From: Candidatus Limnocylindrus sp.
GTDB taxonomy: Bacteria > Chloroflexota > Limnocylindria > Limnocylindrales > Limnocylindraceae
Direction: 5' to 3'
DNA: 64,000 nt
Assembly (NCBI GenBank): GCA_040397175.1
Contig: JBBAWM010000002.1
Coordinates: 64,001-128,000 of the forward strand
A model generated the notes under the pieces. It ran no database searches. It was given only the letters and a program-made list of their open reading frames with translations, and was not told the origin of the DNA. A program made the translations under genes and the position numbers. This document shows, piece by piece, positions 30,634 to 34,830 of this stretch. Within the stretch, counting starts at the first letter, position 1. Every line of letters starts with the position of its first letter.

Positions 30634-31116
30634 TTAGGAGCGGTCGCGCTCGCCGATCGCGTCGCTCGCGTGCTCCAAGACAGGGAGCAGGATGGCCAGC
30701 CCGTCGCGCACGGCGCCACTCCCCCCGGGGAGGTTCACGATGAGCGTCCCCTTGGCAACCCCCGCGACGCCGCGCGAAAGGATCGCCGCAGGGGTCTGGG
30801 AGCGCCCCAGCATGCGAATGGCGTCAGGGATACCCGGGATCACGCGCTCTAGGAGTGGTGCAGTGGCGTCAGGGGTAACGTCGCGAGCGCTGAGCCCAGT
30901 TCCACCCGCAGTCAAGATGACGTCGACGGTACCAAGGTATTGCTCGAGCACCGTTCGAATGGCTTCAAGCTCGTCGGGGGCCTGCGCTCGCTGCACCTCC
31001 CAGCCATGGGCCACGAGAGCAGCCGCGGCAAGGGTCCCCGCCTTATCTTCCCGCTCGCCAGCATGAATCGAGTCACTGACCGTGAGCACCAAGATCGACC
31101 GAAGTGTTTCACTCAT
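30634..31116 (-). CDS. MogA/MoaB family molybdopterin adenylyltransferase
   Basis: LTVSD, EDKAG, TAGGTGLSARDVTPDA, LSRGVAG, NLPG. Confidence 0.92.
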   Translation of the reverse strand: MSETLRSILVLTVSDSIHAGEREDKAGTLAAAALVAHGWEVQRAQAPDELEAIRTVLEQYLGTVDVILTAGGTGLSARDVTPDATAPLLERVIPGIPDAIRMLGRSQTPAAILSRGVAGVAKGTLIVNLPGGSGAVRDGLAILLPVLEHASDAIGERDRS

Positions 31117-31131
31117 CTGCGCATACTAATA

Positions 31132-32682
31132 CTACGCGGCACCGACGAGGCTACGGATGATCAGCATGGCGGCGCCAGCGCCGAGGAAGAGGTTGAGCAA
31201 CATGAACCGACGCCATGCGGCGCGCGCAGCCTGATGTGTCGGGCGACCAACGATGAGGGGAAGTAGCGAGAGTGAGCTCGCACACGGCAAGATCGCCGCA
31301 ATGCGCTGGAGTGGCTCACCCTGCAGCAGGAGCAACGCTCCCGCTGCGGCGTAGAGCGCAACCGCGAACCAGCCACCACCACGAACACCAAGCAGCGTTC
31401 CCACCGTAGCAATTCGTGAGCGTCTATCGGCATCCACATCCTGCAACGCTCCTACGACATGGCTCCCCATGTTCCAAAAGAAGAAGGCAGCAAGCGGTGC
31501 GATCCACGCGCTCTGAAACCTTCCACCGAGTGCGAGCCCAGCCACGGCAGGAATCACAAAATGCGTAGCCGAGATGATTGAATCGAAGATTGGCACGGCG
31601 CGGGCTCGGAGGAACTGCGGCGCGCTGTACATGGTGGCGGCGGCAATCCCAAGAAGACACATCAGCGGCACTACCAGTGATCCCGAGAGGAAGAACACGA
31701 GCGCTGAGCCGGAAGCAAGAAGGAGGAGGCGTCGAAGTGCTGGCAGATCGCGTTCCTGTAACAGCGCGCCCTCGGCGCCGCCCTTACGTGGATTCTTGCG
31801 ATCAGTCGCTAGGTCGTACAGATCGTTGATGCCGTAAAGATAGAGGTTGTACGCCACCCCCCACCAAAGCAAGAGCGGCAAGAACCATGGCCCTACCGCC
31901 TCTCCACCCCCGGCGGCAAGCGCGCCGCCCGCGAACGGGAGAGCAGTATTGATCCACGACACCGGGCGCGAGGAGAGGAGTAACCGCCACCAACCACCAT
32001 TCGTTGCACGAGCCGTTGCCGTTAGCTGCGCTGCAACCAGGGCAAAGGCGGCGGCATAGAGCAGATCTTCGATGGGAGCAAGGCCAAGCGACACACCTGA
32101 ACGCGGCGTAGGTGCGTACTGAAAGAGGTTCGCCGCGCACATCGCGTTGTCCACGATCAGGGTGAGTCCAAGGAATATCACAACAGTTCGACGGCTCCCC
32201 TGGTCGCGCACGAGGAGTGGTCCGGCAAAGAGCAGTGCGCCCGCGGCGAGTCCAGCCGTTGCCGCCGTATATTCACCGCCGATGCCAGCGACCCGCAGAA
32301 CGACAGCGACAGCGACACAGAGGCCAGCTGCGGCACCAGATCGGCCGGCGGAGAGCGATTGATGTCGTTGGCCGCCACTCGTCTGGCCCACGCTCATGAG
32401 CACACCGACCAGCGCGGCAAGTGCGGCGAGGAGGGCGATCTCCTCAACGGGGAGGCCCGCGTTCAGTGCGCCACGACCTGGGAGCATGAGCAGCGTTGAC
32501 GAGAGTGGCGTCGCGAACCACCCACGCCAAATGCCAACCGCATCTACAAGTAGCGCGGCGACGGCGGTGACGACGGTTACGGGGAGGAGTACCTGACGCG
32601 TGACCGGCAATGCGAAGTGGCGGACCAGACCGCGCACACCAACCACCGAGAGCGCGATCAGGGCAAGGTACGCGGCGCCCAT
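31132..32682 (-). CDS. Fusion of two lycopene-cyclase-type domains and a UbiA-family lycopene elongase (CrtYe/CrtYf/CrtEb-like)
   Basis: LPVEEI (cyclase subunit 1); LTLIVDNAM...GLAPIEDLLY (cyclase subunit 2); SSRPVSWINTALPF, YGINDLYD...DRKNPRKGGAEG and ALQDVDADR (CrtEb-like). Confidence 0.8.
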   Translation of the reverse strand: MGAAYLALIALSVVGVRGLVRHFALPVTRQVLLPVTVVTAVAALLVDAVGIWRGWFATPLSSTLLMLPGRGALNAGLPVEEIALLAALAALVGVLMSVGQTSGGQRHQSLSAGRSGAAAGLCVAVAVVLRVAGIGGEYTAATAGLAAGALLFAGPLLVRDQGSRRTVVIFLGLTLIVDNAMCAANLFQYAPTPRSGVSLGLAPIEDLLYAAAFALVAAQLTATARATNGGWWRLLLSSRPVSWINTALPFAGGALAAGGGEAVGPWFLPLLLWWGVAYNLYLYGINDLYDLATDRKNPRKGGAEGALLQERDLPALRRLLLLASGSALVFFLSGSLVVPLMCLLGIAAATMYSAPQFLRARAVPIFDSIISATHFVIPAVAGLALGGRFQSAWIAPLAAFFFWNMGSHVVGALQDVDADRRSRIATVGTLLGVRGGGWFAVALYAAAGALLLLQGEPLQRIAAILPCASSLSLLPLIVGRPTHQAARAAWRRFMLLNLFLGAGAAMLIIRSLVGAA

Positions 32683-33311
32683 CAGCGTGTTCGCGCCGCC
32701 ATCCGATACGAGACGAGCGAGAAGAGGGCGAGGGTGACGCAGAAGAGCAGCGCCGCGAGCACCCAGAAGGGTTCTGGATAGAGCTGCACGAGCCGGTCGG
32801 TCACAGGATTGAAGGTCCAGGTTCCCGCGGCGAAGAAGAGGCCGTGGAAGAAGGAGAACGTAGTATCAAACGCGAGGGTGAAGGCGGCGGTGGCCACCAG
32901 TGCCCCGATGGCAATGAGCGCCGCTCCATCGCGTATGGCCACGCGGAGCCAGCTCCGGCGGCGACGACGGGCGAGGGTCAAGATGACGAGTCCGCCGATT
33001 CCGCTGAGGAGGACTGCGCGAAGAAGCACGCCGACATCAACGAGGTGGGATCGCTCTTCGGCGGAGAGGAGCGGGGTGTCGCCGAGCGGGGCATCAAAGG
33101 CGCCCCCTGTCAGTAAATCCCCCACCAGGGCGTCAGAGAGCCCTTCGGCTACGGCTGGCTCCACCCCGAGCGTCGCAGGGGCGTCGCTGATCCCCAGCAA
33201 GAGGTGCACCACTGGGGGCGTCAAGAAGATCGCCGTCGTTGCGGCAATCGCCAGGGCCACGGCGGCGAGGGCGAGGAGCGCCCGCCGCAAGAGGCGGCGG
33301 AGGGACGTCAC
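32682..33311 (-). CDS. DUF1461/TIGR01906-like integral membrane protein
   Basis: ERSHLVDV, FDTTFSFFHGLFF..GTWTF...DRLVQLYPEPFW; about four TM helices. Confidence 0.75.
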   Translation of the reverse strand: MTSLRRLLRRALLALAAVALAIAATTAIFLTPPVVHLLLGISDAPATLGVEPAVAEGLSDALVGDLLTGGAFDAPLGDTPLLSAEERSHLVDVGVLLRAVLLSGIGGLVILTLARRRRRSWLRVAIRDGAALIAIGALVATAAFTLAFDTTFSFFHGLFFAAGTWTFNPVTDRLVQLYPEPFWVLAALLFCVTLALFSLVSYRMAARTR

Positions 33312-33697
33312 GCGTCAGCGAGAACCTGCCCCTGTTCCCACCACGATCGGAGGGAGAGTGGGTCAGGGGCCGGCAGGCCAAGTGTCTGTGCGGTCGTCAT
33401 TACGACCGCCTGGAAGTGCTCCCACGGTGCCGCAGCGAGCGCCTCGACGCCGCCAAAGCCCGACTGAGCCAGGAGCTCGTGCTCACTCGGCCCAAGGAAG
33501 GCCAGGTTCAGGAGGAGTGCCTCATCGCGCCATTCGGCGACATCGGCGGTCGAGGCGTCCGTCTGGTCGGCAAGTGTTTGGCGGCGGGTGGGGGTCTCCG
33601 TTCGCTCAAGCAGGAGCCCTGTGGTGAAGATCCCCTGGGCCTCGAGGCGCGCAAGGTGCACCGGCTCGATTCGTGTGAGTTGACCGATGGCTGGCAT
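33308..33697 (-). CDS. DUF4332-like helix-hairpin-helix protein
   Basis: RIEPVHLARLEAQGIFTTGLLL...RQTLA...W...L...LGPSEHELL pattern; ATG 33697 with GGGAG RBS. Confidence 0.65.
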   Translation of the reverse strand: MPAIGQLTRIEPVHLARLEAQGIFTTGLLLERTETPTRRQTLADQTDASTADVAEWRDEALLLNLAFLGPSEHELLAQSGFGGVEALAAAPWEHFQAVVMTTAQTLGLPAPDPLSLRSWWEQGQVLADA

Positions 33698-33757
33698 GGC
33701 TCCCCCTTTCCCTCCCCGCAGCCTAGCGCCTCCCGCGGAGGCTGTGGGATGCCGATT

Positions 33758-33777
33758 TGTTACAGAATACTGTAACA
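33758..33777. promoter_or_regulatory. Perfect inverted repeat, putative operator in the divergent promoter region
   Basis: TGTTACAG-AATA-CTGTAACA. Confidence 0.6.
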
Positions 33778-33873
33778 GTTGCATAATATTACGGAATCGC
33801 AACATCTTGCCCAGGATTTGCGATACTTATCAACAGCGATCCAAGGAGGTCGCAGGTATTAGTGGAGGTCACT

Positions 33874-34668
33874 ATGGATGCTGTAATGGCATACAAGTTG
33901 GTCTACGGGTTCATGTCCCTTGCCATCGCGGCAATGGGCGCGAGCTTCTTCTTCTTCGTTTCCGCACGCGGAGCGCTGAAGGAAGGCAATCGAATGGCAG
34001 TAACGCTCTCGGCCACCGTTGTGCTGATCGCGTTCTACCACTACATCCGCATCTTCGACTCATGGGTCGAAGTCGGAACAAACCTCAAGGAGGTTCTCGC
34101 CTTGGGCGTCCCAGCCGGTCAGCAGCTTGCTACTGCGGCAGGGACCTTCAACGAGTCCTACCGATACGTGGACTGGCTCCTGACGGTGCCGCTCCTCGTC
34201 GCGGAGCTCGTGCTTGTTCTCAAGCTCGATAAGAAGCTTGAGAGCACGCTGATCAAGCGCAATGTGGTCTACGCGTTCTTGATGATCGCGACCGGCTACA
34301 TCGGTGAGAATTACACCGTTAATTCGATCCAGCTCGACAGTGGTCGCACCATCTGGGGCGCAATCAGCTCAGTCTTCTTCGTCCTCATCCTGCGCGACCT
34401 GTTCGGCGGGATCGATGCGTCGATCAAGAAGCAGAGCAAGGACATTCAGGGGATCTTCAAGATCCTCCGCGTCGTCCTTATCGCAACCTGGGGCGTCTAC
34501 CCAATCGCCTATCTGCTCCCAGCAATCGCTGGCAACCTCGGCCTAACCGCCGATGCTGGCCTTGCCTACAAGCAGATCGGATACACGATTGCCGACATCC
34601 TGGCGAAGCCGGGCTACGGTCTCCTCATTTGGAAGATCGCAACCCTGAAGAACGGTTCTTCGAAGTAA
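33874..34668 (+). CDS. Microbial rhodopsin, xanthorhodopsin/actinorhodopsin-like proton pump (DTE)
   Basis: [31 protein letters not shown] (D-T-E), [18 protein letters not shown] (retinal Lys); seven hydrophobic segments; GGAGG RBS. Confidence 0.96.
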
Positions 34669-34675
34669 TCCCCTT

Positions 34676-34693
34676 CCAGCGGCAAACCGCTGG
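34676..34693 (+). terminator. Hairpin just downstream of the rhodopsin stop
   Basis: CCAGCGG-CAAA-CCGCTGG followed by TTT. Confidence 0.5.
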
Positions 34694-34705
34694 TTTCGGA
34701 TACAG

Positions 34706-34738
34706 GAAAAGGCCCGGGGGAAACCCCCGGGCCTTTTC
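34706..34738. terminator. Bidirectional intrinsic terminator
   Basis: GAAAAGGCCCGGGGG-AAA-CCCCCGGGCCTTTTC between the convergent rhodopsin and tRNA-Pro genes. Confidence 0.85.
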
Positions 34739-34753
34739 TATTGGTCAACGTTG

Positions 34754-34830
34754 TGGTCGGGGCGACTGGATTCGAACCAGCGACCTCTTGCACCCCATGC
34801 AAGCGCGCTACCAAGCTGCGCTACGCCCCG
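34754..34830 (-). tRNA. tRNA-Pro(GGG)
   Basis: CGGGGCGTAGCGCAGCTTGGTAGCGCG-CTTGC-ATGGGGT-GCAAG...GGTTCGAATCC...CCA. Confidence 0.97.

Follow-up and report, generated by a model that had tools for sequence, protein, structure and literature searches.

How does a bacterium in which no gene for retinal synthesis is recognised equip its rhodopsin, and why does a carotenoid gene stand beside it? This question is raised by a locus in a 64,000-nucleotide stretch of Candidatus Limnocylindrus sp. (contig JBBAWM010000002.1, positions 64,001 to 128,000; hereafter the window), where a rhodopsin gene of the xanthorhodopsin (XR) clade (33874..34668, plus strand) faces a leftward run of genes including one that codes for two lycopene cyclase domains and a lycopene elongase in a single chain (31132..32682, minus strand; hereafter the fusion). 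The genome carrying the window (G000) is 1.38 Mb in size and 91.5% complete. We found that the rhodopsin and the fusion are a conserved two-gene unit in the genus, in which known parts stand in a previously unreported arrangement and the evidence for their coupling is genomic. Our favoured reading, given somewhat less than an even chance, is that the product of the fusion would be an unglycosylated cyclic C50 carotenoid serving as antenna of the rhodopsin, with the retinal being scavenged.

The rhodopsin is present in 41 of the 42 genus genomes and in none of 24 genomes from the sister family, and the fusion is likewise found in 41 of 42, once as a fragment of 44 amino acids. In 35 of 41 cases both genes are on one contig, 31 times with two further genes (DUF4332 and Lit) in between and four times directly head to head, and in the other six the pair is split by contig ends. 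The linkage put forward in the original prediction is thus conserved. The direct cassette (G005, G011, G019 and G065) has a spacing of 135-208 nt and lies in other contexts, with a fabF-like gene in G005 and G011 and an NhaA-like gene in G019 and G065 (these labels, as well as moeA, moaC, rplL and rplU below, are presumptive). In G011, an msrAB gene follows the cassette (L067:4427-5458). In metagenomes, a rhodopsin was detected beside all 35 fusion loci with sufficient upstream flank (two direct) and beside none of 28 loci with an unfused elongase; 17 further fusion loci were too short, and this set overlaps the genome set and hence is not independent of it. In a FastTree phylogeny of RpoBC, G005, G011 and G019 branch outside the clade of window-type genomes with support 1.0 (G065 is in no species tree, and G024 was kept in the RpoBC tree uninterpreted). 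We favour the direct cassette as the ancestral arrangement, with the caveat that in an earlier tree, for which the outgroup was thin, the genomes with the direct cassette fell inside the genus (81/95). The RpoBC of L176 (G024:C64) is on an abnormally long branch, and a mis-binned contig is possible.

The genome that lacks both genes, G029 (78% complete), still carries their traces. A syntenic scar of the rhodopsin spans 13 codons, 12 of 13 identical (E 1e-6), and one of the fusion end spans 12 codons (E 2e-4), compared to best control values of E 0.3 and 0.09 for the two scars. DUF4332, Lit and crtB are intact. Two separate deletions removed the flanking genes, with the pair between them left in place; the lineage of G029 may have abandoned phototrophy. 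The rhodopsin slot by the tRNA-Pro is filled in G029 by an RCC1-repeat gene (L083:2910-4421).

The spared genes have a history of their own. The DUF4332 protein (33308..33697, minus strand, 129 amino acids, Pfam E 2.6e-12) and the Lit/DUF1461 membrane protein (32682..33311, minus strand, 209 amino acids, TIGR01906-like, Pfam Lit E 6.7e-17) lie side by side in 15 of the 24 genomes of the rhodopsin-less sister family, and the pair was upstream of mogA in all five sister-family regions fetched. In G005, G011 and G019 both stay beside the tRNA-Pro, outside the direct cassettes. For the Lit-like protein only the Pfam family is satisfied, as its score for equivalog NF051877 (39.4) is below the cut-off of 400. 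They are a pre-existing pair of the tRNA-Pro-moeA/mogA locus and likely unrelated bystanders of the light genes. The two accessory proteins expected earlier, and with them a four-gene module, have to be given up, as the pair is older, is absent from the cassette in four genomes and was kept in G029 when both light genes were lost.

The rhodopsin starts with an ATG at 33874 and consists of 264 amino acids (searches were run with residues 2-264), and it is predicted to be an outward proton pump. D100, T104 and E111 form the DTE motif, K245 is the Schiff-base lysine, and G162 (codon 34357-34359) within RTIWGAIS aligns to XR G156, in agreement with the motifs and with the XR Gly156 equivalent after the tryptophan that had been claimed. 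The DTE motif, the Schiff-base lysine and the His partner of the counterion are present in 34/34 genus sequences, and the top matches in PDB are psXR, GR, XR and Kin4B8 (E 4e-51 to 8e-42). Glycine at XR position 156 is found in 34/34 genus sequences compared to 14/36 of the nearest outside representatives, and is not the default state among relatives. The antenna-bearing rhodopsins (Salinibacter XR 3DDL, Gloeobacter GR 6NWD, Kin4B8 7YTB and psXR 9WFA) share DTE, G156, G201 and Y207 with the one in the window. In contrast to them, P139 and P162 of XR are replaced in 34/34 genus sequences (window 34300-34380, near the ring end of retinal), residues kept in 28/36 and 30/36 outside representatives, respectively. 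As antennas they use keto or 3-hydroxy carotenoids, all C40-based, whereas no C40 ring oxygenase was found here. The AlphaFold model of the rhodopsin has a pLDDT of 55, too low for judging fenestration, and a predicted complex between the rhodopsin and the elongase domain scored 0.00 and was weighed neither for nor against. Contigs from RNA libraries (X1-X3) cover the rhodopsin, X1 being identical over 33851-34672, and those of X2 also match parts of the fusion; these contigs have small word shares and give neither level nor strand. The B-C loop (window 34067-34147) is about 15 residues longer in the window rhodopsin and L007 than in other genus members. Near four other Chloroflexota rhodopsins, no match to crt or blh was obtained within +/-1.5 kb.

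The fusion codes for 516 amino acids, with cyclase subunit 1 at about residues 1-100 (PVEE), subunit 2 at about 133-225 (PIED) and the elongase at 229-516; the presence of two cyclase domains had not been stated before. Residues 229-516 are a CrtEb-type prenyltransferase with the UbiA fold (PRK13105, 218.9 bits over a cut-off of 217) in which the Asp-rich elongase motifs are intact. The cyclase part is below curated cut-offs (PF18916, 19.4 < 27; TIGR03462, 27.9 < 39.4), and profiles from the N-terminus retrieve both standalone cyclase subunits of other bacteria separately (E ~1e-7 to 1e-19). Both PxE[ED] motifs are conserved across 19 aligned sequences. For the three domains, the pooled pairwise dN/dS is 0.11, 0.10 and 0.09 (14 close sequences), compared to 0.37 for the linker, and this purifying selection rules out a decaying cyclase. 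The TGA codons inside the fusions of G012, G016 and G062 proved to be the natural stop after 514 codons in all three loci read. The modelled chain folds as a single membrane protein (pTM 0.86). A plasmid search gave five weak matches and no characterised cyclase reference.

The order cyclase-cyclase-elongase and the PRK13105-type elongase resemble LbtA with LbtBC from Dietzia sp. CQ4 and CrtYe/CrtYf/CrtEb of Corynebacterium glutamicum, and LbtBC, as described in passages of the same sources, is a precedent for a cyclase-elongase fusion (PMC6669644, PMC2889829). Unlike in those systems, the enzyme here is one chain, detached from crtIB, with no glycosyltransferase and tied to a rhodopsin. Our alignment search gave 70 genome loci, 36 within the genus and 34 outside. 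Outside, the three parts are separate genes, crtI is adjacent in 29/34, and a rhodopsin is in the fetched flank of 0/34; in outside genomes searched whole the count is 0/7, and one Aquiluna genome carries a rhodopsin elsewhere. Both outside elongases scanned have a GT2 glycosyltransferase domain, of which no close counterpart was found in G000, and the crtI-crtB of G000 shares flanking genes with several outside crt operons. The separate parts, the GT2 domains and the shared flanks together suggest an origin in an ancestral operon, from which the block would have been cut out, then fused, freed of its glycosyltransferase and set beside the rhodopsin.

The window ORF list is without crtB, crtI and blh, as had been noted, and lycopene and retinal were expected to be supplied from elsewhere. 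For lycopene this is the case, as crtI-crtB are on a separate contig (G000:C4), crtB is found in 40/42 genus genomes and G000 has a polyprenyl synthase motif. For retinal, synthesis is not evident: in the 42 genus genomes, of which only nine are at least 90% complete, neither Blh (0/42; positive control 2/81) nor an RPE65-type carotenoid oxygenase (0/42; the control gave matches) was detected. In G000, genes of the CrtZ, CrtW and CruF families and CrtY were not found, and the fusion is the only lycopene cyclase found; a C50 carotenoid would thus be the sole home-made hydroxylated cyclic pigment. A second elongase-like gene lies next to a CrtI paralog (G000:C1:327750-330253), an adjacency seen in 15/15 regions fetched, and the paralog is 85-98% identical across the genus. 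Neither is above a specific family cut-off, and possibly this pair supplies a general acyclic pigment, a C50 branch without CruF. The single cytochrome P450 of G000 (C1:27287-28537) was considered as a zeaxanthin hydroxylase and is disfavoured, as its best PDB matches are of the CYP107/125 type and it lies downstream of a nucleoside phosphorylase-like gene.

In the favoured reading, lycopene would be made by CrtI/CrtB, the elongase domain would add two C5 units to it, and the intramolecular cyclase pair would then close the rings to give a hydroxylated, sugar-free C50 diol. This diol would likely sit at Gly162, in the fenestration that Gly156 opens in XR, as a blue-light antenna and pass its energy to a retinal taken up from outside. 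The support for the antenna includes the linkage, the direct cassette, the paired deletion, the separate parts in relatives, the intact motifs under purifying selection, the retention of the glycine and the fact that no enzyme for retinal or ring oxygenation was found. The second elongase-desaturase pair, as a possible source of general acyclic pigment, counts on this side as well.

Several points weigh against this reading, in addition to the conflicting earlier tree. The co-loss in G029 stands alone, and that genome yielded no second elongase either. In the cyclase tree, whose references were labelled by gene context and of which none is biochemically characterised, domain 1 clusters with subunits linked to an elongase (support 99, then 54) and domain 2 is nearer to C40-type subunits, including two blh-linked pairs (support 89); the ambiguous cyclase class and the below-cut-off Pfam score of domain 2 count on the same side. 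The opening at Gly156 may not accommodate a C5 side chain carried by ring C-2. A rhodopsin antenna of the C50 type is unreported in the literature searched, and, according to the passages concerned, archaerhodopsin-2 receives no energy from its C50 bacterioruberin (PMC8480471), G156 is necessary and not sufficient (10.1101/367102), fenestrated HeimdallRs probably use scavenged antennas (PMC12137139), and genes adjacent to rhodopsins usually serve retinal (PMC12779958).

Two rivals survive best, both of which we consider unlikely and clearly behind the C50 antenna. In one, an unrecognised oxygenase might split the fusion product, whether this is beta-carotene, a C50 or a C45 in which a single beta-ring is plain, to yield retinal or a ring-substituted analogue and so the chromophore itself. 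The fusion being the only lycopene cyclase found in G000, the missing Blh and carotenoid oxygenase and the grouping of domain 2 with blh-linked C40 cyclases would all fit, and the paired loss fits equally well. A similar case is Aurantimicrobium minutum, with an XR-like rhodopsin, C50 genes and no blh, in which retinal was detected and a C50-derived retinal proposed (PMC7734400); the passages describe separate crtYe/Yf and crtEb, and in them there is no fusion or rhodopsin linkage. The acI cluster actR-crtYc-crtYd-blh likewise has a heterodimeric-type cyclase beside the opsin in the description available (10.1101/367102), with the difference that here the elongase occupies the place of blh. 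However, no candidate oxygenase accompanies the cassette, the intact and conserved elongase domain would draw lycopene away from plain beta-rings, and other blh-less rhodopsin bearers are described in part of one source as retinal auxotrophs (PMC12422013).

Equally improbable, in our judgement, is that the cyclic C50 functions in photoprotection or membrane order and that the fusion is kept next to the rhodopsin solely so that the two are expressed together in light, with the fenestration of the rhodopsin empty or holding scavenged xanthophylls such as lutein or zeaxanthin. C50 operons do occur in rhodopsin-less relatives (the seven whole genomes above), the related psXR is stated to bind lutein in the passage seen (PMC12779958), and both genes would go if light were no longer used. 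Against this, crtIB, on which every pigment depends, has remained at another place and lacks the motif discussed below, a second elongase-desaturase pair is already present, and the relocation was limited to the ring-making block.

Far less probable is a switch like that of haloarchaeal opsin and LyeJ, where an opsin is coupled to a lycopene elongase (review PMC9410494, in part): apo-rhodopsin would bind and inhibit the elongase domain and shift lycopene from C50 to beta-carotene made by the cyclases alone. The review gives the precedent, and both competing activities are here in one chain next to the opsin. In the haloarchaeal case, according to the same passages, the product is acyclic, Blh/Brp is present and the coupling is by protein inhibition, whereas here the switch would need a beta-carotene cleavage enzyme, of which none was found, and the domain is of the CrtEb type (PRK13105), with a PRK12875 score of 108 below the cut-off of 205. 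That the linkage is purely historical, a single joining kept by general synteny, is just as hard to sustain, for although conservation in the genus extends over the entire der-gpsA-tRNA-Pro-mogA-nrdR-dcd block and 31 of the 35 linked cases are one arrangement by descent, the pair has been kept in no fewer than three flanking contexts, and the two non-adjacent deletions of G029 took exactly the rhodopsin and the fusion, sparing the genes between.

The layout of the locus agrees with the original prediction in the three overlapping genes facing the rhodopsin (DUF4332 and Lit by 4 nt, Lit and the fusion by 1 nt, TGATG) and in the AT-rich palindromic intergenic region (33698-33873; 37% GC in the core). 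The run of minus-strand genes extends, as was not noted then, past the fusion into a mogA-like gene of the host operon (30634..31116, minus strand) after a gap of 15 nt. In the window (30634-31131) this mogA stands alone, and the moeA-like and moaC-like genes present in G016, G019 and G029 are missing. A 15-bp perfect hairpin, likely a terminator (34706..34738), lies between the rhodopsin and the tRNA-Pro(GGG) (34754..34830, minus strand) that is the edge of the variable slot. GATACT (33822..33827, plus strand; CATAAT or GATAAT in relatives) is likely the -10 box of the rhodopsin and TAGGCT (33720..33725, minus strand) likely that of the leftward operon; a promoter scan was at chance level.

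The palindrome is an inverted repeat, TGTTACAG and CTGTAACA separated by 4 nt (33758..33777), with perfect arms of 8 bp. Each of the 31 window-type upstream regions has its half-site TTGTTACA, placed 62-66 nt (53 nt in one case) before the -10-like hexamer of the rhodopsin, and the complete palindrome is in 16/34 upstream regions. In G000 the complete palindrome occurs once and the half-site 19 times compared to 3.4 expected under a fourth-order Markov model, often near the starts of transporter-like genes and of genes for ribosomal proteins (rplL, rplU), with orientation mixed (e.g. C2:216116, C3:208570, C2:153576), and none precedes crtIB or the second elongase-desaturase pair. The cassettes of G005 and G011 lack the motif, and the rhodopsin-less G029 has kept it. 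A carotenoid-specific operator was rejected on these grounds, and the co-regulation proposed from the palindrome is weakened because the half-site is genome-wide and absent before crtIB; common control of both transcription directions is possible. It is likely that the half-site is bound by a global regulator.

For these Chloroflexi, rhodopsins resembling XR and a possible antenna have been noted earlier, the pigment being unnamed in the part concerned (PMC6169038), and a rhodopsin gain in Limnocylindraceae has been reported in a paper in which the main text and searchable supplements give no match to 'caroten' (PMC13212565). In addition, a carotenoid of m/z 591 and unidentified structure is stated, in the passage available, to bind an actinorhodopsin (PMC8113403). 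The triple fusion and its linkage to a rhodopsin are unreported in the literature searched, a search with most subscription journals and bioRxiv supplements outside its scope. There is close to an even chance that this is the first rhodopsin with a native cyclic C50 antenna from a dedicated one-chain enzyme or, as a bolder alternative, that a C50-derived, Blh-independent chromophore route exists throughout the genus. A one-gene enzyme from lycopene to cyclic C50, if true, would be a compact part for biotechnology. The genus raises the question how rhodopsins are equipped in bacteria without blh, which the present results narrow to a two-gene question in E. coli. The rhodopsin antennas described in the literature consulted are C40-based, and a C50 antenna, if true, would widen the antenna chemistry in a widespread lake lineage.

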